Made by a program: the position numbers and the translations under genes. Below are positions 6,529 to 27,605 of a stretch of DNA of 64,000 nucleotides, one piece after another. Below the pieces are notes generated by a model. It had not been told where the DNA came from, did no database searches, and saw only the letters and a list, made by a program, of their open reading frames with translations. Every line of letters starts with the position of its first letter. Position 1 is the first letter of the stretch. Origin of the DNA: Candidatus Stercoripulliclostridium sp. (GTDB taxonomy: Bacteria; Bacillota; Clostridia; Christensenellales; DTU072); contig JAZNIY010000008.1 of the NCBI GenBank assembly GCA_045577735.1, positions 201,088 to 265,087 of the forward strand. Direction: 5' to 3'.

Positions 6529-6648
6529 AGGGCAACTTGCCGGTGTCTTGTTTGTTAATGCCCCACGATTGCTAAAGAAATAGGAGCCTACGCTGTTTCT
6601 CGGCAAAGAAAAAGAACATCGTGCTTGGTGTTCTTTTCTTTGGCGGAG
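6529..6648. repeat. Partial (right-hand) copy of the tRNA-Ser-associated structured element
   Basis: 6586-6647 is near-identical to 23453-23514 (GCCTACGCTGTTTCTCGGCAAAGAAAAAGAACAYCGTGCTTGGTGTTCTTTTCTTTGGCGGA). The upstream part resembles 27114-27150. Confidence 0.9.
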
Positions 6649-6658
6649 TGTGTGAAAC

Positions 6659-7309
6659 CTAAACCGAACATTTTTCAACGATTATAGGCTTTGACTTTTC
6701 ACCCTCAAACAAAATTTTGATATTATATGTATGTAAATCCTCATATTTATCTTTACAAACCATTGTCATTGTTATATATTCATCATCATTTTTAACAACT
6801 GGATTTTTCAAGTCAATTCGCCTTGTTTCTTCCACTAAACAACTATAAACTATCGTTTTTTCTGCTTTCCATAATATAGACCCAGTGGAATTTTTTAATT
6901 CTATATTATCTATTTGTATATCCGTTGCAATATTATTGGAAACATTTTTTATCGTAAATCCGTAGTTTGAGTGCCCACCATTAGCCCCACAAAAATCCAC
7001 TATAAATTTGGGCATATTTTCTTGTTTTTCTTTTTGTTCTAGATAATAAGCTTTTTTATCAGCTTCTTGCTTTATTATGTGATTTTGATATAATGCTAAC
7101 GCACCCAAAACAACCGTACCTATAAAAGAAAGAATTGCTCCGTAATAGCTTAAGGCTTCACCAGCAGACCATTCAGCTTGGAAAATCTCTGCATCTGAAT
7201 TTATTTTAAATAACAGATTAATGAGAAAAGGAATCCCAAATAAAATTATTGTTATCAATAAACATATAAACACAAATATAACTTTATGTTTTTTTATCCA
7301 TTTGCGCAT
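6659..7309 (-). CDS. Hypothetical membrane protein (two TM helices plus a beta-rich C-terminus)
   Basis: 216-aa ORF with RBS (AGAGG) and two hydrophobic helices. Confidence 0.7.
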   Translation of the reverse strand: MRKWIKKHKVIFVFICLLITIILFGIPFLINLLFKINSDAEIFQAEWSAGEALSYYGAILSFIGTVVLGALALYQNHIIKQEADKKAYYLEQKEKQENMPKFIVDFCGANGGHSNYGFTIKNVSNNIATDIQIDNIELKNSTGSILWKAEKTIVYSCLVEETRRIDLKNPVVKNDDEYITMTMVCKDKYEDLHTYNIKILFEGEKSKPIIVEKCSV

Positions 7310-7327
7310 AATATTGATTAACCTCTT

Positions 7328-7840
7328 TTATTCTACAATTGTGCGCAGTTTTTGTACCACACAACGAACTTTATTTGTTTTTAAGATGTTTGCTAAAACG
7401 CTTTTTAATTCTTCAAAATCAGCAATTGTCATTTCTTTATTACCGCCATTAATTTCTTTTGCAATATCATAATCCAGCTCAATTTTTATAGGATAATATG
7501 CAAAAACTGAAATATAAAAAATATTAAATTTATATTTATCGTTATACAAAGTCAAAGCGTAATACTTATCTTTTAGCAAGTCATTTATATCCGTTTTTTC
7601 TTCAGTTTCAACGTCTTGAGATTCGTAATGCCCTTGCGTTAATGCCGTAGAAGATACCACTCCGCGAACTAATATAGCCATAGCTGATTGATAATACTGC
7701 ATTTCTATCACTTTTGCTTTGGCTGTTGTGTTTTTTTCATTAAAATAAAGGCATTGTTCTTTTAAAAGTTCAATTATTGAAGAAGTTTCTTCTCCTGCAA
7801 CAGTATCATTATTCCAAAGATTTTCATATTTTTTATTCAT
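7328..7840 (-). CDS. Hypothetical protein, coupled to the EEP nuclease
   Basis: 170 aa; its start overlaps the end of the upstream gene by 8 nt. Confidence 0.7.
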   Translation of the reverse strand: MNKKYENLWNNDTVAGEETSSIIELLKEQCLYFNEKNTTAKAKVIEMQYYQSAMAILVRGVVSSTALTQGHYESQDVETEEKTDINDLLKDKYYALTLYNDKYKFNIFYISVFAYYPIKIELDYDIAKEINGGNKEMTIADFEELKSVLANILKTNKVRCVVQKLRTIVE

Positions 7841-8624
7841 ATCTTTCTTCCTCCGTTAAGTATACAATAATTGGTAAATGGTCACTAATATTAGTGTCTG
7901 GCTTATTGTTTTTTATTAAATTTATGTCGTTAATGGTCTTAACTATTTCCACGCCTTGATAATTAGGTAGCATTTCCTTTCTCAACAAACATTGATCAAA
8001 AAAATGCCAATATATATTTTGAGGATCTGAGTAATAATAACTTCCATAAATTTTAAAATCCTCAGATATTAAACTTAACATAGGATTATAAAATTTCTTA
8101 TATATTTTCTTGTCGTGTTCAATGAAATCTTTTTTAATTAAATCCTTGAACGATACGGCGTGTAAATATGCATAACTAGTCATTTGATTATCATAAGGAT
8201 TTAAATTGAAATCACCAATAACAATTGTCTTGTTGTTATGATTTTCCCCCTCTGCTGAAGCTATTGCATTTTTCATTTCGGTTATTGTTATTGCTCTAGA
8301 ATCATTTTGTTGAGGTATTTGAGATTCAAGATGAACGCCAATCAAATTAAAGCAAAAATTATTTTTATTGCAATTAAATAATATGTAGCGCTTGGATGAC
8401 TGTATTTGAGAAATCACAATATTCTTTTTAGCTAAGCATAAAACTAAACAATCATCCAAGCCAAAAATAAAATTATACTTATTTTTCAGTTGTTCAATAT
8501 CTTTTACATTTAAATTATCTGCCTCTGCAAGCATTATTAGATCTATATCTTTTGCTTGCGAAAGCTTGATTATTAATGAAGTTAAATCATTTTTTTTAAG
8601 ATTCCAAAAAAGAATTTTTATCAT
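7833..8624 (-). CDS. Endonuclease/exonuclease/phosphatase (EEP) family protein
   Basis: FWN, LAE, GVHL, IGDFN, FDQ and SDHLPI catalytic motifs. Confidence 0.85.
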   Translation of the reverse strand: MIKILFWNLKKNDLTSLIIKLSQAKDIDLIMLAEADNLNVKDIEQLKNKYNFIFGLDDCLVLCLAKKNIVISQIQSSKRYILFNCNKNNFCFNLIGVHLESQIPQQNDSRAITITEMKNAIASAEGENHNNKTIVIGDFNLNPYDNQMTSYAYLHAVSFKDLIKKDFIEHDKKIYKKFYNPMLSLISEDFKIYGSYYYSDPQNIYWHFFDQCLLRKEMLPNYQGVEIVKTINDINLIKNNKPDTNISDHLPIIVYLTEEERYE

Positions 8625-8711
8625 ATACTCAATACGAAGACTAAAATACCCATTAGTCTAAAACGTCCTCATTATATTTTATAACTGATGTTGCTATATG
8701 TTTTGCGCGGA

Positions 8712-9452
8712 TTAGTTTTTCTTAAACACAAACAAATACTCGTGGGCAAGCAGTAAAAAGTTGTGTTTTATACTGTTCGTTTTCCAAAATCCTGTTGCTT
8801 TGCAGTTGTGTTGTTCTTTTATAATAATTTCTTTTGTCTTAAAGCCTGCAAGTTCAAAAATTCGCATTGTTTCAAATGCAAGTGGTTGCACCATTCCGTT
8901 TTTACGAGTGTCGCCCATTAAAACAGCGCAAAATTTACCTTCCTTTAGGACTCTAAAACTTTCTTCTGCAACTTTGCCTATTTCCATTAAAAATGATTTA
9001 ATAGGCAAGTGAGATAAATCGCCGTCAATATCTTCGCTGTATTGAATAATATCGGCATAAGGTGGGTGCGTACAAATTAGGTCAATGCTTTCATCGGGCA
9101 ACTCCAATTTTCGAGCGTCGCCAAGATGAATAGAAATATCTACGTTAGAATCAAACTCAAAATTACATTTGTTGCGAGATAATTCAACCGCATTAGGGTT
9201 TATATCAACACCGATAAAATTTCTACCCGTTAGTTTAGATTCAACGGCAGTCGTGCCACCGCCTACAAACTGATCTAAAACAGTATCGCCCTCGTTTGAA
9301 TAACGCAAAATAATGTTTCGAGGAATATAAGGCGACCAATTACCACGATATTTAGCGTCGTGAGTTGCCCATTTACCACGATTAGGGAACGCCCAAACAG
9401 TATTTGTTTCAAGCTCGAAATTTTCGGGTTGTAAAGGGATTTTCTTTGCCAT
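8712..9452 (-). CDS. DNA methyltransferase, DpnA-like position in the cassette
   Basis: DQFVGGGTT SAM motif and THPPY catalytic motif; last gene of a DpnII-type cassette. Start moved to MAKK. Confidence 0.8.
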   Translation of the reverse strand: MAKKIPLQPENFELETNTVWAFPNRGKWATHDAKYRGNWSPYIPRNIILRYSNEGDTVLDQFVGGGTTAVESKLTGRNFIGVDINPNAVELSRNKCNFEFDSNVDISIHLGDARKLELPDESIDLICTHPPYADIIQYSEDIDGDLSHLPIKSFLMEIGKVAEESFRVLKEGKFCAVLMGDTRKNGMVQPLAFETMRIFELAGFKTKEIIIKEQHNCKATGFWKTNSIKHNFLLLAHEYLFVFKKN

Positions 9453-9453
9453 A

Positions 9454-10317
9454 TTATTCAGCGAAAAGCGTATCAACAACGCCGTTTTCCATATCGGAAA
9501 TGCAATAGATATTATCCATTACGTCAAACGTTTCTTCTAAATTGTGGCGTGCTGATTGCCAACCTTGTCCGTCGGTAAACCACACAAACGCAAAACCGTG
9601 AATTTCTTTTGCCTCTAACGCAATAGTTTTATAACTTCTTGCTGTTTCATTAAGCTTAGAGCCACCACTTGAATAAAAATTAGTTTCAATGCCATAAATG
9701 GTAACACCTTTTTTAACAACGAAATCAAAACGCTTTTCTGCCTTACCTTGATTTGAAATGTTTGAAAGGTCAATAGACCACTTTTTCTCAATGTCAGATA
9801 TGTACATTTCTTTGAAGTAGTCAACGCCTTTAACAAGACCTACTTTTTGCAAATAATCTTCAACGAGGTTTTCCATTAAATGACCGCCACGGTTTTTACG
9901 ACCATTGCTATCAAGACCAACCTCAACACCTGTAACGTAATCGACAAGATTATTTATAACGTGTTCAGAAATCAAAGAGAAAAGCCCTGTTTTTTTCATA
10001 AACATTTTATATTCTTCAACGGAATAGTTCATTTTCTTAAAGTTGAAAAGATATTCGCCGTCGCCGTCAATAGTATAAATTTCACGACCTCTAACAGCTA
10101 GTAATACGGGAATACATTTTAATACTTGCGGATAATCCGTAAGCAATTTTTCAAAATCTGCCTCTATATTTTTAGAGCCGATTAGCGAATTAAGAATATT
10201 AAGTTCAACCTTAATCGTTTCTACGTTTCCGTAAACTTTGTTAAAGTCAACGTAATAACCGTAATCGCAAATGCTATTTCTAAACGTTTTTAACCATTCC
10301 TTAAAATCTCTTTTCAT
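9454..10317 (-). CDS. dpnB: Type II restriction endonuclease, DpnII/MboI family (GATC)
   Basis: GVEVGLDSNGRKNRGG, KRFDFV, IETNFYSSGGSKLNETARSY and WFTDGxGW signatures. Confidence 0.92.
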   Translation of the reverse strand: MKRDFKEWLKTFRNSICDYGYYVDFNKVYGNVETIKVELNILNSLIGSKNIEADFEKLLTDYPQVLKCIPVLLAVRGREIYTIDGDGEYLFNFKKMNYSVEEYKMFMKKTGLFSLISEHVINNLVDYVTGVEVGLDSNGRKNRGGHLMENLVEDYLQKVGLVKGVDYFKEMYISDIEKKWSIDLSNISNQGKAEKRFDFVVKKGVTIYGIETNFYSSGGSKLNETARSYKTIALEAKEIHGFAFVWFTDGQGWQSARHNLEETFDVMDNIYCISDMENGVVDTLFAE

Positions 10318-10332
10318 AAGTTTGTTTTCTCC

Positions 10333-10575
10333 TTAATAGCGAGTGTCGTGGGTGCAAAAATATGTACCTATAGTTTCAAATAAAGTTTTGTCATTAGGGG
10401 CTAAGTCAATTAAAAGTTTCAAGTCTTGTTTTGTTTGATATCCGTAGTTTTGTTGATTATCAACGCTTTGTTTTAAAAATGACTTTATCGCTTTTTCTTT
10501 TATATGATTTTCAATGTTTGGATCTTGAAGTAGTTTTATAAAATCAAGTAGAAATGTGAAGAAATCTTGTTCCAT
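10333..10575 (-). CDS. Small hypothetical protein inside the RM operon
   Basis: 80 aa, RBS GGGAG, tight spacing to both neighbours. Confidence 0.6.
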   Translation of the reverse strand: MEQDFFTFLLDFIKLLQDPNIENHIKEKAIKSFLKQSVDNQQNYGYQTKQDLKLLIDLAPNDKTLFETIGTYFCTHDTRY

Positions 10576-10589
10576 AAGTATCTCCCTAA

Positions 10590-11435
10590 TTATTCTATCG
10601 TGATATGTATTACATTATCGACAAGCTTCCATTTCGCTTGCTTTGAAATGAAAATATTATCTTCATTAATCAAACCGCTTTGTTTATATATTTCTGTTAC
10701 TCCACCTAAATATCTACGTGTTTTATCTATATTTAGTTGATAAGTGCTACCATTAAAAACAACCGTTATAGTTTCATCGTTAGCGCTTATTGTATTTTTA
10801 ATTAGTTGAGGGATGATTAAAATACGCGCGCGAATATCGTTTGCAGTTATTTCTCTTGACACGATGTAGTCATTTTCAATAGTGATAACAGGGGTAGAGT
10901 CGCAAGTAGATACTTCAGTAAAAAGGCTCTTAATTGCCTCTTTTACCAAAACAGGCTTATATGTAAAACCTATTCCGTTTTCAATACACATATCAAGAAG
11001 TTTCTCACCATTTATTAAAATAGTAGGATTATTAGGATTGCTAATGGCTTCTTCTAGTGCTCCTTTTGTAAAATCAGAGGTGGTAATCAAAACGTTAATA
11101 AAATTACAATTCAAAACATTGCCGTTTTTATCTCTTTTTGTAGAGCCTTTTAAATCCCTTATTTCTTTTGCTTGAACTTTGTTTGATAGCTTGTACCTTT
11201 TGGCTTGGATGTAGTAGTTTATAGTATCTATACCACCAACATCAATTCCTTTTTTAATACAAGTTAAATCAATACCTTTATCGCCAACATATTGCGTAGT
11301 AACGACTTCTTCAAAGCCGATTTTTTGCAAAAAATGATTTAAGAAAAGTTCAAAATCTCTAGGGCTGACAAAGCAATCGTAAAGCGCTTGGATATATTCC
11401 TTTTTAAGTTCCTTTGGTAAATCTAAATAATTCAT
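10590..11435 (-). CDS. Mrr-like (PD-(D/E)xK) restriction endonuclease with a C-terminal extra domain
   Basis: PRDFE, GDKGID, IQAKRY, ITTSDFT and LINGEKL Mrr_cat motifs. Confidence 0.85.
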   Translation of the reverse strand: MNYLDLPKELKKEYIQALYDCFVSPRDFELFLNHFLQKIGFEEVVTTQYVGDKGIDLTCIKKGIDVGGIDTINYYIQAKRYKLSNKVQAKEIRDLKGSTKRDKNGNVLNCNFINVLITTSDFTKGALEEAISNPNNPTILINGEKLLDMCIENGIGFTYKPVLVKEAIKSLFTEVSTCDSTPVITIENDYIVSREITANDIRARILIIPQLIKNTISANDETITVVFNGSTYQLNIDKTRRYLGGVTEIYKQSGLINEDNIFISKQAKWKLVDNVIHITIE

Positions 11436-11447
11436 CTTGTTTCCTCT

Positions 11448-12515
11448 CTAATTACAAATAAGCAATTCTTTTATCTTGCCACGGCTGTCGCCTTTACTGT
11501 TTATTGCTCTTGTAGCCTCAACCTTGTTTATTGTATATGATTTATAAAGTTCCTCGAAGAAAGTATCTTCGGGGTTTACGTTTTGCGGATCAGAATTACT
11601 TAACATTATTTTTGCACCGCTTAAATTTATTTCATCAATAAATCTTGCAAGGCGTATTTGTTCGTTATCATCAAAGCAATCGGCATTATATGCTGTAAAG
11701 CCCGCTGTTTCAGAAATAGGACGGTAAGGGGGATCAAGATAAACAAAAGTATCTTTATCTATAAAATCTTTTGAAAGAGTATAATCTCCACAAACGATAG
11801 TAACGTTTTGTAATGCCTCAGATACGTTACGCAAATTGTTTTCATCGCAAATAGTTGGGTTTTTATATGCTCCCATAGGAACATTAAATTGTCCTTTCTT
11901 GTTCACACGATAAAGCCCATTAAAGCAAGTCTTGTTTAAGAATATAAATAAAGAGGCTTTTTCGACTGCGGTTTCTTCAGTAATTTGCAAAGAATTAAAT
12001 CTATCTCTTGCTGTATAGTAATAATATTTACGTCCGTTTTCATCCATAGGAACGAACGCAAGTTGCATTTCGGTTAGTTTATTTACAAGCTCGTCAACCT
12101 TGTTTTTTACAACGTTATAAGCGTTGATAAGCTCTTCATTTATATCACTAATATAAAGGCTTTCAAAGTTATATTTAGAAAGAATATTAAAAAGCAATGC
12201 ACCACCACCAACCAATGGCTCTGCATACTTTGTTAAGACTTTTTTCCCGTCAATAGGAATATATTTTTCTAATTGTTCAATAAGTTGACCTTTACCTCCA
12301 ACCCATTTAACAAAAGGCTTTAACTCAACAATCTTTTGTTTTTCGTATCTAATAGTACGCTTATCAATAGGCTTTTCGGCATTGCTTGGGATAATCCACA
12401 TATTGCCGACCATCATTGCACCTTTAATGCGTTCTTCCGCGCATAAAATTGCAACGCGTCTTTGAGAAATATTCCATTTTTCTGCTGCCTCTTTTGCCGA
12501 CATATAACTAAGCAT
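11448..12515 (-). CDS. dpnM: Dam/DpnM-family adenine methyltransferase with an N-terminal HTH
   Basis: KWVGGK, EPLVGGGA, FNGLYRVNKKGQFNVP and DPPY motifs. N-terminal AKEAAEKWNISQRRV HTH; RBS GAGGTGA before 12515. Confidence 0.9.
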   Translation of the reverse strand: MLSYMSAKEAAEKWNISQRRVAILCAEERIKGAMMVGNMWIIPSNAEKPIDKRTIRYEKQKIVELKPFVKWVGGKGQLIEQLEKYIPIDGKKVLTKYAEPLVGGGALLFNILSKYNFESLYISDINEELINAYNVVKNKVDELVNKLTEMQLAFVPMDENGRKYYYYTARDRFNSLQITEETAVEKASLFIFLNKTCFNGLYRVNKKGQFNVPMGAYKNPTICDENNLRNVSEALQNVTIVCGDYTLSKDFIDKDTFVYLDPPYRPISETAGFTAYNADCFDDNEQIRLARFIDEINLSGAKIMLSNSDPQNVNPEDTFFEELYKSYTINKVEATRAINSKGDSRGKIKELLICN

Positions 12516-12633
12516 AAATATCACCTCAAATATGATACATATATTATATTCCAAATCTCGAATAATAGCAATAGGATATTTACTAAAACTTAAACATAAA
12601 TTTTTGGTTTATAATGTGATGCCACTATTATGA

Positions 12634-12694
12634 GTGCTTGTTATATACAAGTAGACCCAATTTCAAGGTATAAAATATATGTTTGGCGGCGGAG
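12634..12694. repeat. Partial (left-hand) copy of the tRNA-Ser-associated element
   Basis: GTGCTTGTTATATACAAGTAGACCCAATTTCAAGGTATAAAA...GTTTGGCGGCGGAG matches 23160-23223 and 27007-27069. Confidence 0.9.
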
Positions 12695-12761
12695 GGTATT
12701 AAACATAAAACTATCTTTTGTTGAGATTGACTTTTTGTTTAACCTATGTTAGTATGAAAGC

Positions 12762-13472
12762 ATGGAACAAATACAAGAAATAAAAGAACAACTATGTGAC
12801 GTATGTCATAAAATGTGGCAACTTGGTTGGGTTGCTGCAAATGATGGAAACGTTAGTGCAAAACTTCCCGATGGAAGGGTTATTGCTACGCCTACAGGCA
12901 TCAGTAAAGCATTTATTACACCTGAAAAACTTGTTATTCTTGACAAAGAGGGCAATATCCTTGAAGCCAACGAAGGATATCGTCCATCAAGTGAAATCAA
13001 AATGCATCTTCGTTGTTATCAAAAGAGAGAGGACGTTTTTAGTGTAATCCATGCTCATCCTCCTGGTGCTACTGGGTTTGCTGTAGCACATAAGGCAATG
13101 GATATGTATAACATGATAGAGGATGTTGCCGTTATTGGTTCGGTACCACTTACTCCTTATGGCACACCATCTACTTCGGAAGTTCCGGATTCAATAGAAC
13201 CATACCTTGAAGAACATGATGTTATGCTTTTAGAAAACCATGGAGCACTTGCCGTGGGAAGCGACGTAATAACCGCTTTTTATAGAATGGAAAGTCTTGA
13301 ACTTTGGGCAAAAATAACTATTAATGCTGTTATTTTGGGTGGCAGTCACGATATTAGCAAAGAGAACATACAAAAACTCATTGATTTAAGAGGATACTAT
13401 AGAGTAACGGGTAGGCACCCCGGATATAAGGTTTTTAATCCGGAAGATAATTTGCTTCATAAGAAGGATTAA
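12762..13472 (+). CDS. fucA: Class II aldolase (fuculose/rhamnulose-1-phosphate aldolase)
   Basis: DGNVS, TPTG, PSSEIKMH, HAH and LENHG motifs; operon with a kinase and fucI. Confidence 0.75.
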   Translation: MEQIQEIKEQLCDVCHKMWQLGWVAANDGNVSAKLPDGRVIATPTGISKAFITPEKLVILDKEGNILEANEGYRPSSEIKMHLRCYQKREDVFSVIHAHPPGATGFAVAHKAMDMYNMIEDVAVIGSVPLTPYGTPSTSEVPDSIEPYLEEHDVMLLENHGALAVGSDVITAFYRMESLELWAKITINAVILGGSHDISKENIQKLIDLRGYYRVTGRHPGYKVFNPEDNLLHKKD

Positions 13473-13495
13473 TTAGTCCAAAAGGTCAAGATAAG

Positions 13496-14905
13496 ATGAA
13501 AACGGTTTTAGCCTTTGATTTTGGTGCTTCTTCTGGAAGAGCAATAAAAGGAGTCTTTGACGGAAAAAGTATAAAGTATTCAGAAATTCATCGTTTTGAA
13601 AACATACCCCAAATAGTTGATGGGCATGTTTGTCATGATGTTGATATGATTTTTGAGGAAATCAAAACTGCGATTAGAAAGGCAGGGAGGGTTGATTCAA
13701 TCGCTTTTGATACTTGGGGTGTTGATTATGCACTTCTTGATGAAGAAGGTAATATTATACACGAGCCGTATCATTATCGCGATAGTCGCACTGCTAACGC
13801 CTTGGAGATTGCGTTTGCCAAAATGCCAGCAGAAGCAATATTTGTAGAAACCGGCAATCAAATAATGAATATCAACACCCTTTTTCAACTTCTCTGTGAC
13901 AAGGATCTTCATAATGCAGATAAATTGCTTTTTATGCCGGATTTATTTGCTTATCTTCTTACTGGGGAAAAGGTTTGTGAAGTTACTATAGCATCAACGT
14001 CGCAAATGTTTGATATGGTAAAAGGGGAATGGAGTAAGAAAGTTTTAGATACTTTTGGCATTAAAAAAGAATTACTTCCACCTTTGAAAAAGAGTGCAAC
14101 GATAAACGGCTACTATAACGGAGTGCCAGTCATAAGTGTTGCCGGACATGATACGCAATGTGCCGTTGTAGCAATGCCCACGCATACGAAAGATGTGGCT
14201 TTTCTTTCCTGTGGCACTTGGTCGCTTATGGGGTGTGAGGTAGATGCTCCGATTATTACAAAAGAAAGTGCTGAGTACGACCTTTCTAACGAAATGGGCG
14301 CAAATGGAAAAATCAACTTTCTTAAAAACATTAGTGGGCTTTGGCTCATCCAACAACTAAGACAAGATTTAAAAGAACATGGAAAGAGCTTATCTTACGA
14401 TGAACTTGAAAATTTGGCGAGATCAAGTGAGAAATTTCGTAGTTTTATAGATCCCGATGCCCCTGATTTTTCGGCACATGGCGATTTGATTGACAAGATA
14501 AAAGCATATTGCAAAAAAACAAACCAACCAGTACCTTTGACTATCGGTCAAATAGTACGCTGTATTTATGAAAGCCTTGTTATGAAATATAGACTTGCCC
14601 TTGAGCAAATCAGCGAGTGTGCCCAAAAAAACTTTGAAGTACTTAACCTTATGGGTGGCGGTTCCAAAGATAGTTTCTTGTGTGAATTAGCCTCTGAGAG
14701 CATAGGTATCCCTGTTATTGCAGGGCCGGTTGAAGCCACCGCTCTTGGCAACATTATATTACAACTTATTGCACTTGGTGCAATAAAGGATGTTGACGAG
14801 GGACGAAAAATAATTGCCGAAACGGAAAATGTAAAACTTTTTAACAAAAAAAGAAGGGCAGAGTGGGATGTGGCATATAAAAGATTTTGTGAAATTATAT
14901 CGTAA
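13496..14905 (+). CDS. FGGY sugar kinase (rhamnulokinase/fuculokinase)
   Basis: DFGASSGR, DTWGVDY, HYRD, GHDT, SCGTWSL and GPVEATALGN motifs. Confidence 0.88.
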   Translation: MKTVLAFDFGASSGRAIKGVFDGKSIKYSEIHRFENIPQIVDGHVCHDVDMIFEEIKTAIRKAGRVDSIAFDTWGVDYALLDEEGNIIHEPYHYRDSRTANALEIAFAKMPAEAIFVETGNQIMNINTLFQLLCDKDLHNADKLLFMPDLFAYLLTGEKVCEVTIASTSQMFDMVKGEWSKKVLDTFGIKKELLPPLKKSATINGYYNGVPVISVAGHDTQCAVVAMPTHTKDVAFLSCGTWSLMGCEVDAPIITKESAEYDLSNEMGANGKINFLKNISGLWLIQQLRQDLKEHGKSLSYDELENLARSSEKFRSFIDPDAPDFSAHGDLIDKIKAYCKKTNQPVPLTIGQIVRCIYESLVMKYRLALEQISECAQKNFEVLNLMGGGSKDSFLCELASESIGIPVIAGPVEATALGNIILQLIALGAIKDVDEGRKIIAETENVKLFNKKRRAEWDVAYKRFCEIIS

Positions 14906-14947
14906 CAATTTTTAATAAATATACAATAATTGAAAGGAGAAAAAGAA

Positions 14948-16732: not shown

Positions 16733-16767
16733 TTAGAAACCTAAAACACATATAACCATAAAAACAA

Positions 16768-16797
16768 AAAAGGCCTTGTCTTAACAAGGTCTTTTAT
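16768..16797. terminator. Bidirectional terminator between convergent operons
   Basis: AAAAGGCCTTGT-CTTA-ACAAGGTCTTTT. Confidence 0.75.
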
Positions 16798-16807
16798 CAT
16801 TTTATCG

Positions 16808-18712: not shown

Positions 18713-18729
18713 AATTACAACCTAACTAA

Positions 18730-19263
18730 TTATTGTATTTCCAGTTTTATAAAACTGTCTACATCATGGAAAGTGCTCTTGTTGGTAGGGTTAAGTGCAT
18801 ATAGATTTAGTGCATCCTCATCATAATCTTGCCTAAATAAATTAAAATAAGCATTATCTTTTTGAAAACCCAACCTTTGTAAATTAGCGATAGGGATAGT
18901 CATGTAGCAATCCCAACAATCATGCTTCTTGTCAACGTGCGAAAAGAAAGGAGGAGAAGGAAGATATGTTATATTTAGTGGCCCATCATTGTTTTCAACA
19001 ACGCCTGCATATTGCACACCATCGGGGTTGACTTCCAACTCTAAATATTTATTTCTTTTTCCAAGAGTAATAAAAATTTCGACGGTATCTCCTTCGTATA
19101 GCTTGTCGTTGTATGATTTGCCTTTTGAAAAAACATTTTTATCATAAGAAACAAAGGATAGATTAAGCGAATCATTCTCAAACAATAGAGAATAGTCGGT
19201 TTTATTTTTTGCAAAACCACCAAAGTTATCTTTTAATTTTCCAGAGCAAATCAGTTTTTTCAT
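18730..19263 (-). CDS. CBM9-like/DOMON carbohydrate-binding domain protein
   Basis: LYEGDTVEIF, YLELEVNPDG, FNLFR and TFH motifs. Confidence 0.65.
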   Translation of the reverse strand: MKKLICSGKLKDNFGGFAKNKTDYSLLFENDSLNLSFVSYDKNVFSKGKSYNDKLYEGDTVEIFITLGKRNKYLELEVNPDGVQYAGVVENNDGPLNITYLPSPPFFSHVDKKHDCWDCYMTIPIANLQRLGFQKDNAYFNLFRQDYDEDALNLYALNPTNKSTFHDVDSFIKLEIQ

Positions 19264-19265
19264 AT

Positions 19266-20348
19266 CTATAAGTACTTTTTAACAATGGCATTCATTTGCT
19301 CCAAGTTTTGTTCCATTCTTTCTACCATTTTCATTTGTGTGCGACATCTATCCAAATTGTGTTTTTCGCGATGGGTTTTAAAGTAGTGATCGCCCTCAAG
19401 ATAGTCTGTCAAAAATCTCATGCCACACTCAAAGGTCATAAGGATTGCTCCAAAAGAGAGATTTTCTTTTTCTTTTTGTGTTAGGCTATCCTTTACTTCG
19501 CCAAGAAAACCTTTGCAGAATGATTCGTAAAGATCTAACGAAAAGTCTACGTTACTAAGATCCTTTTCATCCTCTTTGCCGGTATTTGTTCCACTTCTAA
19601 TGCTATCACCAAAATCATATAAAACAGAGCCTTTCATAACGGTATCCAAATCGATTACCGTAACGGGCATCATGCTATCTACGTTCACTAAAACGTTATT
19701 TAGTTTAGTATCGTTATGTGTTACGCGAAGGGGAATATCGCCAGAATTAATTAAATCCAGCACCTTGGAACAATAGTGTTTTCTTTGATAAAACCATTTT
19801 ACCTCATCTTCTACTTCCTGGAGTCTATTAAAAGAGTTTTTGGCTATAGCGTTTTCAAACTTAGCAAATCTATCAACTGTATTATGGAAATTAGGTATGG
19901 AATCCTTAATTGTTTCTGCGGGATACCCATCTAGCATTTTCTGGAACTTACCGAAGCCAACACCGCTTACTTCAAATTGCTCCTTTGTGGGGCTTGTTTC
20001 AATGCTGATGCCACCATAAACGAAATTGTACAAACGATAGTAGCCTATTTCATCATTTCCGTAATAAGACTTATAGTCAAGGGTTTTTATTACTCTTAAG
20101 CAGTCACTAACGTCTTGTCCACTTGCAAGCATCTTATCAAATATATATTCGGTCACACCTACTATATTTTGCATTAAGCCATCAACGTCGCGAAAAACCT
20201 TATGGTTAATTCTTTGTAGAATATAATGTTTACCTTTTTCATCTACTACTTTATACGTGTCGTTTATATGTCCACATCCGTATTTTTCTGCACCAACGAT
20301 AGGGGAGTCAACTTGAAATTGATTACAGATATTTACTATTTTTTCCAT
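19266..20348 (-). CDS. N-acetylhexosamine 1-kinase-like phosphotransferase (APH fold)
   Basis: GHINDT, ILQRIN, HNDTKLNN, IDLDTVM and RFLTDYLxGDxYFK motifs. Confidence 0.85.
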   Translation of the reverse strand: MEKIVNICNQFQVDSPIVGAEKYGCGHINDTYKVVDEKGKHYILQRINHKVFRDVDGLMQNIVGVTEYIFDKMLASGQDVSDCLRVIKTLDYKSYYGNDEIGYYRLYNFVYGGISIETSPTKEQFEVSGVGFGKFQKMLDGYPAETIKDSIPNFHNTVDRFAKFENAIAKNSFNRLQEVEDEVKWFYQRKHYCSKVLDLINSGDIPLRVTHNDTKLNNVLVNVDSMMPVTVIDLDTVMKGSVLYDFGDSIRSGTNTGKEDEKDLSNVDFSLDLYESFCKGFLGEVKDSLTQKEKENLSFGAILMTFECGMRFLTDYLEGDHYFKTHREKHNLDRCRTQMKMVERMEQNLEQMNAIVKKYL

Positions 20349-20353
20349 TGTTC

Positions 20354-21808
20354 TTATCTCCCGTATTTTTTCTTTATTTTTGCGTTCGTTATAATATTTG
20401 GCAGTCCTGCCCAGTAGAGAACCCGCCTAGCCCACCAGAGTTTGGAAAAAGCTTTGATTACTCCAACAGGATCATATAACCATTTTGGAGTAGGTTTAAC
20501 ACCAAAAGTTTTGAGTATTTTGTTGTGTTGCATTAATTTTTGCTCAAATGATAGATAATCTTTTTCATTAGACCAAAGCCTTTCTGCTACTGCGAGCAAT
20601 CTAGGGAAGGTCTTTTTTCTTGCTGTTTTTACGTTAGGTAATAATTCGCCCCATAAACAAGTTTCTACGCCAATGAGGTTTTTTTCAAAAACGAGGGGTT
20701 CATAATCATAAACTCGTTTTAGATTGTTTATACCATAAGGTAAATCCAAATAATATGGTTCTGTTTTTGCATTTATGATTTTCCTTCCACGAGCCATTTC
20801 TTTTTGGAATTTTTCGTTATTATAATCAATATCCCAGCATTCCCAGACAATGCGTTCATCAATAATTCCAGTAGGATCACTTTCATTCCACATGATAGGC
20901 GTTTTCCCGTTGTTGATTATAAATGCACCCAATTCATTCATAAAATGTGCCTGAAACTCATTATAGTTTTTGCAACCGAGTGCAATAAACTTTTGTTTGC
21001 AATGGGGACACAATTCCCAGCGTTGAGAGGGGACTTCATCTCCACCGATGTGGAAATATTCGTCAGTAAATATGTCCATTAATTCTTTAATAATGGTTTT
21101 TATAGCATCAATGGTGCTTTCTTTACCGATACAAGCTACGTCAAATTTTACACCAAAATTTTCAGCGACTCTCACACTTCTATTGAAACAGCCAAACTCT
21201 GGATATGACGCAATTGCAGACTGAAAGTGTCCCGGGACGTCTATTTCCGGTATAACACGGATTCCTTTTGAATGAGCATAGTCTATTATTCTTCGTAAAT
21301 CATCTTGAGTATAATATCCTTTATGCTCTTTTAATCTAAATAACGTTCTGCGTCTAATACTTCCAATTTCGGTAAGTTTTGGAAAGGCTTTTATTTCGAC
21401 ACGCCAACCTTGGTCGTCGTTAAGGTGTAAATGTAAAGTGTTAAACTTGTAAAGAGCAAGATAATCGATTTGCTTTAAGACTTCTTCTACACTAAAAAAG
21501 TATCTTGCGACGTCTAACATATACGCACGCATTTGAATTTTGGGAGCATCCTCAATAATCATAGCGGGAATTTCTTTCTCGCAAGTTTTAACGAGTTGAG
21601 ATAAACTGGCTTTTGCACGCTCTTTTGCAATATGGTCTCTATATTTTAGTTCAACCATATTTTCTTTAATCGCAATAATATACCCTTCGCTTGGAAGAGT
21701 GGTATCTTGAATTTCGTTACAAGCGAGATCTTCTATATCAAAAATATTATCAATAGAATATCCTTGTTCATTAAGTAAATTAATCTTTTGTGGTCTTGGT
21801 ATAATCAT
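20354..21808 (-). CDS. GH20 beta-N-acetylhexosaminidase
   Basis: MLDVARYF, HLNDDQGWR, PEIDVPGH and HIGGDE motifs; start placed at MIIPRP. Confidence 0.92.
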   Translation of the reverse strand: MIIPRPQKINLLNEQGYSIDNIFDIEDLACNEIQDTTLPSEGYIIAIKENMVELKYRDHIAKERAKASLSQLVKTCEKEIPAMIIEDAPKIQMRAYMLDVARYFFSVEEVLKQIDYLALYKFNTLHLHLNDDQGWRVEIKAFPKLTEIGSIRRRTLFRLKEHKGYYTQDDLRRIIDYAHSKGIRVIPEIDVPGHFQSAIASYPEFGCFNRSVRVAENFGVKFDVACIGKESTIDAIKTIIKELMDIFTDEYFHIGGDEVPSQRWELCPHCKQKFIALGCKNYNEFQAHFMNELGAFIINNGKTPIMWNESDPTGIIDERIVWECWDIDYNNEKFQKEMARGRKIINAKTEPYYLDLPYGINNLKRVYDYEPLVFEKNLIGVETCLWGELLPNVKTARKKTFPRLLAVAERLWSNEKDYLSFEQKLMQHNKILKTFGVKPTPKWLYDPVGVIKAFSKLWWARRVLYWAGLPNIITNAKIKKKYGR

Positions 21809-21833
21809 AAATATTATTGTAAACTTGTTCTCC

Positions 21834-23030
21834 TTAGTCTTTAAGCAACCAGATAGCAAGGTCGCATATTTTTATTCCCTCATAGGTATAATCGTCATGT
21901 TTTGTGTTTGCAATAATCATTTTGGGATGAGCATCAGCTATCTTAAGCAATGGTTCATACTCTCTCTTGAATGTTTCGGGATTATCTATATTATCACTAA
22001 CTTGAATATAAATTTGTTCACTACCACGTTTTGCGACGAAGTCAACTTCTTTTTGATAAAGTTTTCCAACGTATATTTCATAACCACGACGTAAAAGCTC
22101 TATACAAACAATATTTTCGTAAATTCTGCCGTAGTCCATGTTTCTACTACCAAGCAAAGCGTATCTAAAACCCACGTCGCTCAAATAATATTTGTCAGAC
22201 GTGTCAAGATATTTTTTGCCTTTAATGTCGTAGCGTTTAACGTCGTAAAACATAAAGGCATTGCACAAATATTTAACGTATTTTCCAATAGTAACGTGAT
22301 TGGTAGTAATCTTATTAAAGGTTAAAGTATCGCTTACTTTATTCGGGGACGTTAAATTACTTATGTTATCCATTAAATATTCTGAAAGATGGTCTAAAAC
22401 GTACGTGTCAGGCAATTTGTACTTGCTAACCAAATCTCTATTAACGATGGTGTTATAAACTTCGCTTATATATTTAACTCGGTCTTGTTCTTTTTTATAA
22501 GCATAAGAGCCTGCGAGCCCACCTTTAATTGTGTATTGTTTAAACAAAGTATCTATATCACTCTCGTTTTCATGATAAAGAACAAATTCTTTAAAGCTAA
22601 AGGGGAAGACGTGGATTTCTATATATCTACCTGTAAACAAGGTGGCTAAATCGTTGCTTAAAAGAAAAGCATTTGAGCCTGTAATATAAATATCATATTT
22701 ACCACTTGTATATAGGCTGTTTATTGCAACTTCAAATTTGTCGCAAAGCTGTACCTCATCAATAAAAAGATAATTATTTTTACCTTTTTGATAACAAGAT
22801 TCTACGTAGTCGTTAAGTTTATGATATTCTTTAAGTTTTTCAAACTTAATGTTGAAAAAATCTATAAATATAATATTCGCGTTACTATCATTTTCTTTCA
22901 AATAATCAATATAAGATTCCATTAGTTTGGATTTGCCAGAACGCCTGATACCTGTAATAATTTTTATATCGGGCGTATCTTTTAAATCAATCAATCTTTG
23001 CAAATAATCTATTCTTTCAATTAACTTCAT
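21834..23030 (-). CDS. AAA_14 ATPase with a C-terminal DUF4143-type domain
   Basis: [24 protein letters not shown] and EVDFV motifs. Confidence 0.85.
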
Positions 23031-23143
23031 TTTTAATTCCCGCTTTCGAAACTTTAATTTTTTTTGTTTTTCGAAACCAATATTATTTTATTCTTATATT
23101 TTCCAAATGTCAATATCTTATAAAAAATAATGGTTAAAAACAA

Positions 23144-23514
23144 TTTGAGATTATCACGTGTGCTTGTTATTATACAAGTAGACCCAATTTCAAGGGATAA
23201 AAATTTTGGGTTTGGTAGCGGAGAAACAGTATAGCGAAAGGCTGTCTCAAGCAAGCAACAATAGCAATAGGGTATCTTACTTGTAATGCGCCGTTTTTTT
23301 GATGGGCACGAACACAATGTGTTCGCTTTCGCCAGGTTTTTGCCCAAGCAAAATGCCAAGCAATTGGCTATAATGTGAGCAATGCGAACTATCCTTCGAA
23401 CAAAGTGAGTCAATGCAAAAACTAATGCACCCTAATTCCTAAAGGAATGGGCGCCTACGCTGTTTCTCGGCAAAGAAAAAGAACACCGTGCTTGGTGTTC
23501 TTTTCTTTGGCGGA
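23144..23514. repeat. Full-length copy of the tRNA-Ser-associated structured element
   Basis: Colinear with 26992-27309, with conserved stems and a longer variable hairpin; ends in a terminator plus TGGCGGA. Confidence 0.9.
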
Positions 23515-23543
23515 AAATATTAAATGTAAAACTGACTTTTTCA

Positions 23544-25046
23544 TTAAATGCTTTTAATAGTTTCTTCGATTTTTCTGCTAGAATGTTTAGAGATGATGGT
23601 ATAAATTATTTCTTTTACATCATAATTGAGTAATAAAGGAGCAGGTAAACTCTGCGACTGGTTTGGTAAAAGCTTATTAAATTTTATTTTAATTACATCA
23701 AAATCTATATCATTTGTTAAAATCTCAAAAGGTTCATATAAATATGAAAGTTCGGCATTCATTTTCTCAGTTTCGTACTCCACATTGCTTTTATCGTAAA
23801 CATTTCCCAAAGCCATAGGTAGTCTCATAGGCACACTTACGCTAGGGTGACTGCCGTAATTATCATAGTCATCGATGTCAGAGCTAGTTTTAGAATTAAA
23901 AATGGTCATAAACATTTGGTTATGCTTAAATGATTGTGGAAACAATTCTAATTCTTTAATATTGCAGATACTGTTTTTAGGGAGAAATAAATTTAAAATG
24001 ATATCCTCATCGAATTCATTTCCTTCATTTGTCAAAGCGAGATTCAAACTCTTAATATTTTTAACTTTTAAAAGAAGATATAATAAATCTTGTTCTTCTT
24101 GAATTAAATCAGCTAATTTTAAAATGTCTTTTAATTTCTTTTTTTCTTTTAATGACCCATAGTCTGATATTTCGTAATTTAAATTAGTCGAAAAACGTTT
24201 ATATAGTTTCAAGTTTCCAAAGTTCAATAATTCTGTTGTATCAACATCCAACTCATTAACAAGGATGAATTCACGAATGCGAGAAAACTCTTCTTTATAT
24301 AAATCTTCAATCGAAGAAATTTCCTCACCCATAGTAATCTTAATTAAAACGGATGACCCTAAACAAGAGGAATTGCTCAATTCATTTTCTAAAAATGGGA
24401 TAGCATTTTCCTTCAATTTGGTCTCAATTTGCTTAAAAAGTGTATTGTGGGCATTACTCAAATGCTTGATTATGGAATTTTCTAACAACTTATAATTACC
24501 CTTTAGTTTACCATCTTCAATAGATTTTAGGAGTAGAATGGAGCTTTTCTCACATTTTTTATATAGATAATCTACAGTGCTTCTTTCGGCTGGAATAGGC
24601 TCTGATTGTGCTCCAGAACGTACGAAAATCGAACCATTTGAAATATAAGGAGGATGTAAGCCTTCTTTAATATTAATGACAATTACTCCAAACCCTATTT
24701 TGCTTGGATTATCGATAAATCTTGCTTTTATTAAATTAACGACTTCTAAATCAACAAAAGGCTTGATAATGTTTATAATGTTTAATTCAACTTCACCATT
24801 TGGCTTTTCAATGTCAACAATTTGTTTAGAATTATCAACACCGATAAAAAGCCATCCTCCTGAGCAGTTCGCAAAAGAACAAATTACTTTAGGGAGCTTT
24901 TTCTTTACTTTTTCACCGAAATCACCTTTAAATTCGATTTTATATCCTTCATCGACATTTGATAATTGTAATAAATCCTCATATTTAATTTTATCAAATG
25001 GAATATCATCTCCGTTTAAATTTTTAAATGGGCAGTAATAATGCAT
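23544..25046 (-). CDS. Schlafen/AlbA_2-domain protein with an uncharacterised C-terminus
   Basis: EGYKIEFK, ICSFANCSGGWLFIGVD and PY...FVRSG AlbA_2 motifs. Confidence 0.85.
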   Translation of the reverse strand: MHYYCPFKNLNGDDIPFDKIKYEDLLQLSNVDEGYKIEFKGDFGEKVKKKLPKVICSFANCSGGWLFIGVDNSKQIVDIEKPNGEVELNIINIIKPFVDLEVVNLIKARFIDNPSKIGFGVIVINIKEGLHPPYISNGSIFVRSGAQSEPIPAERSTVDYLYKKCEKSSILLLKSIEDGKLKGNYKLLENSIIKHLSNAHNTLFKQIETKLKENAIPFLENELSNSSCLGSSVLIKITMGEEISSIEDLYKEEFSRIREFILVNELDVDTTELLNFGNLKLYKRFSTNLNYEISDYGSLKEKKKLKDILKLADLIQEEQDLLYLLLKVKNIKSLNLALTNEGNEFDEDIILNLFLPKNSICNIKELELFPQSFKHNQMFMTIFNSKTSSDIDDYDNYGSHPSVSVPMRLPMALGNVYDKSNVEYETEKMNAELSYLYEPFEILTNDIDFDVIKIKFNKLLPNQSQSLPAPLLLNYDVKEIIYTIISKHSSRKIEETIKSI

Positions 25047-25241
25047 AAAACTCCTATTGTTTTGAAATAAGTGGTAAGAAACGTTGTCCTTATTATACTA
25101 ATTTTTTGTTAAAAATGCAAGTGTATTAAAAATGTATGATAGAATGGATGGTTTCGGTTTTTGGGGGATTTAAATAAGGGTATTGTTTCTTTAATAGGAA
25201 AGTGGTATAATAAATGAAACTATTATAAGAAAAGATAAAAA

Positions 25242-26810
25242 ATGGAAAACAAATTTACACGGAATCAACAACAACAAAATGAATATAAAGCGAAATTAAA
25301 GCAAGAATCGAAAGAGGTCTATAATATTGAAAAATGTTGGGCTTCTCATAAGCCATATAAAGGACTAATTGCTTCACACATAAAACCATATAAACTTTGT
25401 GTGCTAGACAATGATTCTTATTCTGAGTATAACGTAAATAACGGATTATTGTTGTCAAAGACAATTGATGACTATTTTGATAAGTTATTAATTACCTTTG
25501 ACGAAGAGGGTAAAATAATTTGTAGTGACAAGGTTGAGAATGAAATAAAAGAAGAGTTTTCTTTTTATAAGTTAGATGAAAGAATATATAATGTAGAACG
25601 CAAAAACTATATGCGTATACATAGAAGCTTGTTTTACTACAAACATTACTATAATCAAAGTGATATTCCGGCCAATTTAAGAATAGGAAATATGACAATT
25701 CCATTTTTTGATTGTGGCATAAAGCATTATAAAAAGACTTTTATAATTTTTAATAATTCTTTTTGGACAATATGCCCTACAACAAAATTAAAACAAGAAT
25801 TTATTACTCGAACTAACTATAAATTTAAATATTATATTTCTAATGTGGACTTGGCAAACATATTATTAAATATGGAAGAGTATGCTGTTAATTGTGAAAT
25901 AACGCCATTTCTAAATACGCCAACCTCAACAATAAATGTTGAAAACCCTAAAGAAGTAATTGAAGAAAATGAATTTAAAATTAGTTCTACAAATTATAGT
26001 ATTTCTAGTTTTGAGCCTAACAAATTTATATGTTTTTTAAATAACATTCTTTGCAATGATATCGAAGTACAAAAGTTTAGAACAATTATAAATCTCGCTC
26101 TACAAGGGAGGGGTTTTACGAAAGGTATGGCTCTGTTTGGTGATACTCAAAATATTGACAAGCTAATCTTTATATTAAAAGAAATTTTAGGCACCTATAT
26201 CATTGATTATAAAGATACGAAAATTCTATATAAAAAGAATGCTCCCCCAAGTATTCCTAATTGTTGTATAATGGTGTTCTCAAATCACAATTTACCTATT
26301 GAACAATATAACTGGAGCAAAATGATTGATAACTCTTACTTTCCAACTACAATACTAAACATTAATCAGTTTGTTCCATTGGTGACAACAAGCTCGGATA
26401 AAAATTTAAATTTACGGAATTGTATTAAATTTAGGATTAATGCTACGACAAAGCAGTTTGATATTGATGAAATATTAAGAGAAGAAAATAGTGCTATATT
26501 AAATTGGTTTGTAAACGATGTAAAAGTGTCACATGAAGAGTTTGAATGCATTGTTAAGGAATATGAATTAATAACTAGCGACGCTTCTATAAATGATTGG
26601 CTATATAATAATTGTGATTTTGGTGAAAAGATTAAAACTGAAGAAAAGGCTACTGATTTATACGAAAACTATATTGATTTTACCACCAAAAATAAGTTAA
26701 TGCCTGCAACGTCAAGATATTTTTTTATACAAATAAGCAAAATTTTTCAAAAAAAGAGATATGGCTTTGGAATGGTATATCTAGGTATTAAATTAAAAAA
26801 CAATATTTAA
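25242..26810 (+). CDS. HNH endonuclease fused to degenerate P4/D5-type primase-helicase and winged-helix regions
   Basis: N-terminal ASHIKP...NGLLL...FDxxLITF. The middle resembles the D5 region with a broken Walker A (FGDTQNIDK). The C-terminus LYENY..F...SRYFF...KKR..GMVYLGIKL resembles the P4 primase tail. Confidence 0.7.
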   Translation: MENKFTRNQQQQNEYKAKLKQESKEVYNIEKCWASHKPYKGLIASHIKPYKLCVLDNDSYSEYNVNNGLLLSKTIDDYFDKLLITFDEEGKIICSDKVENEIKEEFSFYKLDERIYNVERKNYMRIHRSLFYYKHYYNQSDIPANLRIGNMTIPFFDCGIKHYKKTFIIFNNSFWTICPTTKLKQEFITRTNYKFKYYISNVDLANILLNMEEYAVNCEITPFLNTPTSTINVENPKEVIEENEFKISSTNYSISSFEPNKFICFLNNILCNDIEVQKFRTIINLALQGRGFTKGMALFGDTQNIDKLIFILKEILGTYIIDYKDTKILYKKNAPPSIPNCCIMVFSNHNLPIEQYNWSKMIDNSYFPTTILNINQFVPLVTTSSDKNLNLRNCIKFRINATTKQFDIDEILREENSAILNWFVNDVKVSHEEFECIVKEYELITSDASINDWLYNNCDFGEKIKTEEKATDLYENYIDFTTKNKLMPATSRYFFIQISKIFQKKRYGFGMVYLGIKLKNNI

Positions 26811-26835
26811 CAATATGTTTGTACAATTTATTAAT

Positions 26836-26907
26836 TTTGAGATTATCACGTGTGCTTGTTAGTAACAAGGAGCGTCGCGATGCTCCGCCAAACAAGCACA
26901 CGTGATA
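26836..26907. repeat. Element left end folded into a 17-bp perfect inverted repeat
   Basis: TATCACGTGTGCTTGTT (26844-60) pairs with AACAAGCACACGTGATA (26891-907). The first 26 nt are identical to 23144-23169. Confidence 0.85.
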
Positions 26908-26991
26908 GGTAAAACTTAACTGAAATAGACTTGATTTAGGACGACTGAATCAGGTCTTTTTATTGCCTAAAATTTGGCTAAAAAACCTTGA

Positions 26992-27294
26992 TTGAGATCC
27001 TGGCGTGTGCTCGTTATATACAAGTAGCCCTAATTTCAAGGTATAAAAATTTTGGGTTTGGGGGCGGAGAAACAGTATAGCGAAAGGTTGTCTCATGCAA
27101 GCAAAAAAGTAATAGGGCACCTTGCTTGTAAGGTGCCTTGTTTATTTAATGGACACGAACACAAGTGTTCGCTTTCGCCAGGTTTGGTGTGCAAAGCACT
27201 CCAAACTAATGCACCCTAATCGTTAAAACGATAGGGTATATTTTCTCTGTTTTTCTGCCAGCAAAAAAGACATCCTTGATTGGATGCCTTTTGC
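26992..27294. repeat. Full-length tRNA-proximal copy of the structured element, including the tRNA terminator
   Basis: Homologous to 23144-23514; terminator stem CCAGCAAAAAAGACATCC/GGATGCCTTTTGCTGG. Confidence 0.9.
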
Positions 27295-27386
27295 TGGCGG
27301 AGAAACAGGGATTTGAACCCTGGCTACGCTTCTCACGTACTACTCCCTTAGCAGGGGAGCCCCTTCGGCCTCTTGGGTATTTCTCC
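27295..27386 (-). tRNA. tRNA-Ser(GCT) with encoded CCA
   Basis: The reverse complement GGAGAAATACCCAAGAGGCCGAAGGGGCTCCCCTGCTAAGGGAGTAGTACGTGAGAAGCGTAGCCAGGGTTCAAATCCCTGTTTCTCCGCCA folds as a cloverleaf with a long variable arm. Confidence 0.97.
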
Positions 27387-27546: not shown

Positions 27547-27605
27547 GGGTTATTGTGCGGTATTTTTTTGCGCAATTTTGGACGGCTTCCTTAATTGCAT
27601 AATAG

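Follow-up and report, generated by a model that had tools for sequence, protein, structure and literature searches.

A Recombinase-Less Cassette Array behind tRNA-Ser(GCT) in Candidatus Stercoripulliclostridium, Probably Stacked by a Large Serine Recombinase Supplied in trans

Introduction

How do cassettes come to be stacked at the 3′ end of a tRNA gene when none of them carries a recombinase? The question is raised by an island of ∼21 kb in the genome of Candidatus Stercoripulliclostridium sp. (GenBank assembly GCA_045577735.1), which extends from position 6529 to the 3′ end of a tRNA-Ser(GCT) gene at 27295 of a 64,000-nucleotide (nt) stretch of DNA that we call the window (genome G000, contig C8, positions 201088–265087; the source genome is 1.96 Mb and 97.6% complete). 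Three cargo blocks, for restriction–modification (RM), glycan catabolism with an adjoining ATPase, and a Schlafen/HNH pair, are bordered by noncoding DNA made of pieces of three different parts in varying combinations: a folded mini-element (E), a hairpin (H), and a 29-bp arm of the type expected of large serine recombinases (LSRs). We argue that the array probably grew by the action of an LSR supplied in trans. Positions are those of the window, and readings follow the tRNA (minus) strand unless stated otherwise.

Gain and Loss of Cassettes among Relatives

The array is real and modular: among relatives, whole units are gained or lost precisely at CCGCCA joints. In genome G010, E copy 1 (27063) is joined straight to the hairpin at 23514 and the Schlafen/HNH unit is missing. 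The RM unit is absent from a 1608-nt contig (run X16, depth 6) in which 6641 is linked to 12688, the flanks measuring 1169 and 439 nt. The glycan block is 92–97% identical in five relatives (G005, G007, G010, G011, and G020); it stops at 12688 in the last four, each time with a different neighbor, and its break in G005 lies at 12723. In G011 the gene that this block follows is tRNA-Ser(TGA), with an E copy and two canonical proximal YGAAC arms in between; in G020 the block is found behind tRNA-Ser(GCT) with a canonical YGAAC arm of its own. A cassette with ACT and metallo-beta-lactamase folds is common to G005, where it stands before E, and G015, where it stands after E. The linkage of the ATPase to the glycan block is kept in contigs of runs X1 and X2. 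Breakpoints in the relatives place the predicted crossover within the NNNCCA hexamer.

These breakpoints support an earlier proposal, made in a sequence-only reading of the window, that integrase-less cassettes accreted in tandem through a trans-acting recombinase. Coverage of the Schlafen/HNH unit is low or missing in four runs, which is no proof of absence, and contig joints of 23507 to 27295 (side 22) and 6600 to 12688 (side 30) were left uncounted as possibly repeat-derived.

LSR-Type Arms at the Joints

The sequence-only reading took a structured repeat for the recombination signal and listed five border stretches as copies of it. All five stretches are present where it placed them, but a single repeat family is ruled out, since the stretch at 6529–6648 aligns only to 23144–23514. 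The signal appears rather to be the 29-bp LSR-type arm, absent from that list. One intact and two worn arms occur in the window (table 1), agreeing with one another at 13–16 of 23 positions. The intact pattern, GTTCG-N18-CCGCCA, has a single site in the whole genome, 6641–6669, and this arm ranks 1 of 3,925,056 positions under matrices built from arms of other genomes (11, 14, or 16 in number), the next ranks being taken by junctions of the tRNA-Ala/Val arrays on contig C25. The 23508 arm ranks 128–140 of 3.9 million positions under the 11- and 14-arm matrices. The arrays at tRNA-Ala(GGC) and tRNA-Val(GAC) in the source genome contain another four intact arms of LSR type (G000:C25 58513, 59420, 60279, and 112557).

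LSR genes, encoding a protein with Resolvase, Recombinase, and Zn-ribbon domains, stand beside arm sites in relatives only. Members of this LSR family were found in 24 of 81 genomes of the taxonomic family and in 7 of 21 other members of the genus. Their apparent targets are tRNA-Ser genes of all four anticodons, tRNA-Ala, tRNA-Arg, and tmRNA, and Leu and Asn tRNAs too; the LSR converges on the orthologous tRNA-Ser(GCT) 3′ end in G004 and on tRNA-Ser(GCT) in G061. Complete relatives read tRNA-Ser(GCT), arm, LSR, HUH Rep, H (locus L107), and in G005 a related LSR lies downstream of a pair of H and half H matching that of the window. A related-locus search with a single LSR query returned only the query itself. 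At L034 (6627–7781), an LSR gene broken by two stops, with a perfect arm at its end, lies beside a displaced Leu-type E.

Across 31 LSR loci, YGAAC follows the CCA by 13–14 nt at 15 of 16 tRNA or tmRNA genes, versus 1 of the 48 tRNA genes of the source genome. At 13 LSR loci without an adjoining tRNA gene, the spacing of GTTCR and NNNCCA is 18 nt in 7 of 10 pairs, one pair being far from the gene and perhaps due to chance. The signature of an LSR locus is GTTCR-18 nt-NNNCCA on one side and NNNCCA-13/14 nt-YGAAC on the other, with 13 nt in the tRNA itself. From spacings of 18 and 18 versus 13 nt, the joined site would be symmetric, with 18 nt on each side of tRNA nt 71–72, and the T-loop would be the same motif placed 5 nt closer. 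The rule given for serine integrases is that the zinc-ribbon motif is shifted 5 bp inward in attB relative to attP (PMC3783163, in part). Judged from sequence, the arm geometry of 13 versus 18 nt is this attB/attP shift.

Search for a Helper and Proposed Mechanism

The sequence-only reading had suggested looking for a co-occurring recombinase elsewhere. An LSR on contig C3 and a XerC-like tyrosine recombinase on C19 are present, but no LSR of the family (E ≤ 1e-60) and no match to the PF23343 Rep were found in the source genome. The C3 protein was rejected as a helper: it is 20–27% identical to the family, and neither a tRNA gene nor an arm occurs among the 11 homolog loci listed. The XerC-like gene (C19 68056–68958) lies in a tRNA-Ser(CGA) array, 200 nt from an E copy. 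A 98% identical homolog in G005 (L248 352–1257) is fused upstream of the glycan block, and more distant homologs adjoin tRNA-Thr or -Val, with a tRNA gene in three of six such loci. As a general helper this protein was also rejected, for of the 10 E-bearing genomes just 2 were found to have it; for the movement of E alone it is still a candidate. Against the integron-integrase model it scored 107.9 bits, the cut-off being 265; the two other tyrosine recombinases of the genome, both outside the island, were not scored against this model. Since the search of this genome turned up neither a matching LSR nor a matching Rep, the helper was likely a transient incoming element.

The explanation that we consider probable is that a trans-supplied LSR, which would bind the T-loop as half of its target site, stacked recombinase-less cassettes in succession at the 3′ end of tRNA-Ser. 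An incoming LSR element would recombine at the tRNA end, or at the direct copy of that end carried by E, through a crossover at or next to tRNA nt 71–72 that would leave the tRNA intact. The cassettes of the window would be deletion derivatives of such elements, having lost the LSR and Rep and kept the arms and the H origin. Later insertions would push older cassettes outward, deletions would fuse neighbors (the ATPase with the glycan block, H with half H), and E would rebuild a T-loop-like half site 210–290 bp downstream, providing a second landing site.

Several observations weigh against this explanation, the failure to find a matching LSR or Rep in a genome of 97.6% completeness being the first. 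The related genomes compared are not independent, the RM-less join is one contig of low depth, and no circle or recombination event was observed in the contigs examined. Some breaks fall away from any joint or repeat, where the sequence-only reading had expected them at its repeat: that at 21822, between GH20 and the ATPase in G005, G011, and G020; that at 12723; and those in the interior of the RM block, whose segment 10321–11449 is replaced in runs X3, X11, and X16. The training arms of the matrices were picked by a pattern with 18-nt spacing, and the first rank of the 6641 arm is to that extent not independent of the hypothesis. The 23508 and 12687 arms lack GTTCG and rank between 128 and 2219 under the 11- and 14-arm matrices, no canonical YGAAC arm was found at the start of any cassette of the window, and 6 of the 13 tRNA-less LSR loci have no arm.

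Mini-Element E

E is a folded mini-element of 210–290 bp found directly behind 13 of the 48 tRNA genes of the genome. Its layout runs from the CCA through a terminator-like hairpin, an inverted copy of the last 18 nt of the tRNA, three hairpins, a variable tail of fixed length, and a constant right end to a direct copy of the tRNA from nt 59. In E copy 1 the terminator-like hairpin is followed by the inverted tRNA end at 27259–27247, a folded body (27216 and 27184), and the right end at 27094–27080, and the element closes with a direct copy of tRNA nt 59–75 (27079–27063). The window holds two full copies and one truncated left end in all. BLAST and motif scans recovered 24 occurrences of the E core motif in the genome, for 22 of which a tRNA gene on the same strand lies 102–18,141 nt upstream, and all 15 genome matches to the right-end motif lie inside such elements. 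A repeat scattered regardless of tRNA-Ser was what the sequence-only reading had said would speak against it; E is not tRNA-Ser-specific, yet it is tied to tRNA arrays, and the objection holds by half.

The ends of E follow the tRNA that it adjoins. Among 46 distinct ends, the host tRNA is the best match of the direct copy in 10 of 11 cases (two tied); the inverted copy fits its host tRNA best in 8 of 13 cases (with two ties), and control tRNAs gave 2 of 20. E copies with a foreign direct repeat, of Pro type at Leu-GAG and of Val type in Ala arrays, were observed at L047 8105–8280, L055 8110–8355, and G000:C25 62148; L055 also contains a ZMP/ZTP riboswitch at 13415–13496. Of 43 copies, 36, 41, and 40 have a first, second, and third hairpin, respectively, that outdoes at least 29 of 30 shuffles, against 3 copies for the tail; the sequence of the third hairpin comes in 33 versions, and the hairpins are kept under sequence change. 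A short conserved motif of the E body (e.g., 27130–27140), flanked by two hypervariable stretches of fixed length, lies 52–55 nt before the right end in 41 of 49 matches.

E was found in 10 of the 81 genomes of the taxonomic family, 9 of the 10 belonging to the genus, and stands in tandem runs at tRNA-Thr, -Glu, and -Val. Its pattern had no matches in viral contigs, and a comparison with Rfam gave nothing but tRNA at gathering level. [quoted passage not shown] A 119-bp repeat at three contig ends (C3, C14, and C26) presumably resembles an IS200/IS605 end. A contig joint of run X2 from 23540 to 23145 steps back 396 nt (side 42) and is possibly repeat-derived; if real, it would represent a cargo-less unit of the H hybrid, E, and an arm.

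A YGAAC arm follows 9 of 18 complete direct copies of E versus 3 of 35 E left ends, the copies being related, which suggests that the end of E works as an LSR site or takes the place of one; the right end of E mimics the target half site. We tentatively raise the possibility, itself doubtful, that E acts as a mobile duplicator of landing pads. Its inverted and direct copies of nt 59–76 would be rewritten to suit each tRNA, and it might slip between the tRNA and the resident cassette and restore a free serine-recombinase target while the old cassette stays excisable. If this is true, E would circumvent the one-shot directionality of serine integrases and, together with T-loop-reading LSRs, make an open-ended array of cassettes out of nearly any tRNA gene.

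Hairpin H

One motif is common to the hairpin at 26843–26908 and the half copies at 26992, 23144, and 12634. A collection scan listed 120 H loci of an estimated 790; 33 of these 120 contain a homolog of the PF23343 HUH Rep, 22 contain an LSR, and 14 a tRNA gene. Because H loci carry this Rep and the LSR, H is most likely, as far as its neighbors indicate, the rolling-circle origin or transfer origin of the parent elements. We presume a likeness of H to the nick sites of pC194/phiX174 and MOB-P, which is not confirmed. The inner stem of H varies yet stays paired, and the octamer CTCCGCCA is present in only 20 of 115 parsable copies; its origin from the tRNA was therefore rejected, the octamer being part of a covarying stem. 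Pairs of half H and H like that of the window also occur at G000:C17 151230–151500, behind tRNA-Ser(GGA), and at C28 43820–44060, in a tRNA-Asn array.

Alternative Explanations

Homologous recombination between repeated E and H segments might also shuffle the blocks, in which case the arms would be old scars. The E and half-H copies are 82–90% alike over 60–200 nt, the stretch 23144–23216 is a hybrid of H and half H, and, beside the tandem E runs already mentioned, a Val-type E end is found in an Ala array. The RM-less join, however, uses only the 5–6 bp CCGCC(A), and four unrelated sequences adjoin the 12688 end of the glycan block. Homologous recombination is thus unlikely as the principal process, although it may be a secondary one.

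It is quite improbable that the blocks were moved by the HUH Rep, which would nick one H copy, terminate at the next, and so release the intervening block in the form of a single-stranded circle. Such a scheme would suit the four same-strand copies of H or half H that bracket the blocks, the tie of H to the PF23343 Rep, contig joints of 26961 to 23157 in two runs, and the ability of HUH enzymes to recombine nick sites, as stated in part of one account (PMC5714925). Whole-unit losses, however, fall at CCGCCA joints and not at H, and no Rep was found in the source genome.

Least probable of all is an integron-like platform, one of the two kinds named by the sequence-only reading, or a tyrosine-recombinase platform, in which folded E would be an attC-like single-stranded substrate of the XerC-like protein at C19:68056: the strong folding of E with its three maintained hairpins, the nearness of the XerC-like gene to an E copy and its fusion to the glycan block in G005, and the tRNA genes beside its distant homologs are what it would lead one to expect, but the four junctions contain no RYYYAAC/GTTRRRY (attC core) pair on either strand, no protein that was scored reached the integron-integrase cut-off, the XerC-like protein was found in just 2 of the 10 E-bearing genomes, and the direct copy in E, starting at nt 59, does not reproduce the T-loop.

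Island Setting and Cargo

The features of the island are collected in table 1. The tRNA-Ser(GCT) end at the island edge is where the sequence-only reading had put it, and the Pfam content of the three cargo blocks agrees with its description. Its block borders also stand: CCGCC precedes the start of each block (minus strand: 6646, 12692, and 23513), and each block ends just before a GTGTGCT(T/C)G motif. It had treated glycan catabolism and the ATPase as one module; the two are adjacent here, but the breakpoint at 21822 in three relatives indicates that the ATPase is not obligate. The cargo is AT-rich, with a GC content of 0.28–0.38 against 0.42–0.44 in the flanks.

As that reading had held, no integrase was found in the island: a Pfam scan of 24 open reading frames (ORFs) found no recombinase, transposase, or relaxase family, and four cargo ORFs (216, 170, 80, and 177 aa) have no family at all. 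A tblastn search with eight recombinase and Rep queries gave a single match (E 0.005), in the 170-aa ORF; an LSR remnant there was rejected, as pairwise comparison with the LSR did not support it. A protein-atlas look-up of the 170- and 216-aa ORFs returned hypothetical clusters only.

Table 1. Parts of the island and their positions in the window
Feature	Position	Strand	Remarks
tRNA-Ser(GCT)	27295–27386	−	T-loop GTTCA 13 nt before terminal CCGCCA; predicted attB half
E copy 1	27063–27294	−	Fold z −8.4 vs 100 mononucleotide shuffles
Half H with variant tail	26992–27062	+	Matching H + half-H pair upstream of LSR gene in L035
Hairpin H	26843–26908	+	Likely rolling-circle origin/transfer origin (oriT) of Rep + LSR parent elements
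HNH-domain protein, 522 aa	25242–26810	+	Cargo
Schlafen/AlbA_2 protein, 500 aa	23544–25046	−	Cargo
Worn cassette end GTCAG-18 nt-CCGCCA	23508–23536	−	Similar arm ends cassette in L258; G010 joined here
E copy 2	23217–23507	−	Optional 60-nt insert present; closed by direct copy of tRNA-Ser end
H (left part)/half-H (right part) hybrid	23144–23216	+	
AAA_14/DUF4143 ATPase	21834–23030	−	PADLOC PDC-S01 model; joined to glycan block without junction; not part of that block in G005, G011, and G020
Glycan/fucose block	12762–21822		Aldolase, FGGY kinase, fucose isomerase, GH129-like, APH, GH20
Worn cassette end GATAG-18 nt-CCGCCG	12687–12715	−	Homology to four other genomes stops at 12688
Half H, tRNA-proximal end of RM block	12634–12686	+	H-type hairpins precede same methylase in L262 and L271
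RM/EEP block	6659–12554	−	D12 methylase, Mrr-type and DpnII-type nucleases, N6/N4 methylase, EEP nuclease, three family-less ORFs
Intact cassette end GTTCG-18 nt-CCGCCA	6641–6669	−	Predicted attR, P arm
Displaced, truncated E left end	6529–6640	−	Hairpin and inverted tRNA-Ser end

Upstream of the tRNA gene, at a distance of 151 bp, the tRNA-Ser 5′ end is repeated; the piece (27400–27549), whose structured stretch includes an inverted copy of the anticodon arm, is missing in G003, G005, G007, and G010, and tandem repeats of a tRNA 5′ end are also seen in L093. Elsewhere, the window contains an intergenic hairpin array at 53719–54469, a 90-bp repeat pair at 30759–30848 and 51667–51756, and a 927-aa ORF with internal repeats at 167–2950.

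Comparison with Known Systems

Integron cassette arrays likewise consist of modular cargo separated by structured noncoding DNA. Unlike them, the present array has no IntI and no attC cores, and its multigene blocks have their own promoters and mixed orientation. The comparisons that follow draw on parts of the cited accounts.

In Firmicutes, cis-mobilizable elements (CIMEs) have lost integration and transfer genes and kept their att sites, and stack with integrative and conjugative elements or integrative and mobilizable elements (IMEs) by tandem accretion (PMC5704250). As in CIMEs, no integrase or transfer gene was found in the elements described here, which site-specific insertion of later arrivals would have piled up at the 3′ end of a tRNA gene. 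CIMEs have att sites at both ends; in the window distal arms are present, one intact and two worn, and canonical proximal arms were not found, though the glycan block has such arms in G011 and G020. The array is a CIME-like accretion array, not an integron. In the same account, IMEs of Firmicutes at tRNA ends use tyrosine integrases and those with serine recombinases disrupt dispensable genes; here, in contrast, the probable helper is an LSR that would leave the tRNA intact, and the targets are Ser, Ala, Arg, Leu, and Asn tRNAs and tmRNA.

The ssrA islands of Dehalococcoides are a second parallel: there a large serine recombinase, DsiB, has built islands in tandem behind a gene that resembles a tRNA, and 15 of them lack an integration module (PMC3146451). 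They have one target (ssrA), a 20-bp direct repeat, a crossover in the T-loop, and a six-gene module, whereas our locus shows a 5–6 bp core at the acceptor end, many targets, and two-gene LSR + Rep parents. As at the sites of the LI/A118 integrase, attP arms are palindromic and the outer motif lies 5 bp nearer the center in attB (PMC3783163); unlike there, the universal T-loop here constitutes the outer motif, and the native target has no such motif in its downstream half (it occurs at 1 of 48 tRNAs). Streptococcal IMEs with relaxases of the rolling-circle-initiator type are likewise small, integrated, and equipped with both an integrase and a Rep-like HUH protein, but all of them carry a tyrosine integrase (PMC5357655), while the PF23343 Rep is paired here with an LSR. 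In the literature searched, at the level of titles and abstract openings, neither LSRs that read the T-loop nor E were described. The word “tRNA” is absent from the main text of a large LSR survey, whose supplements may list such targets (PMC10083194).

Implications

The LSR family is large, with 4170 clusters at E ≤ 1e-50 among 8000 scored, and it appears to target a feature common to nearly all tRNA genes without damage to them. For this family, the locus supplies named enzymes, predicted sites, and natural filled/empty pairs. What it adds in particular are such pairs for two units, the movement of a 9-kb block from one tRNA-Ser gene to another, and the association of H with Rep + LSR parents; the part of the locus that could be new in kind is E with its tRNA-matched ends. 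If confirmed, stacking by trans-supplied LSRs would account for integrase-less defense and glycan islands in gut Clostridia and would provide integrases with a predictable, broadly present bacterial target.

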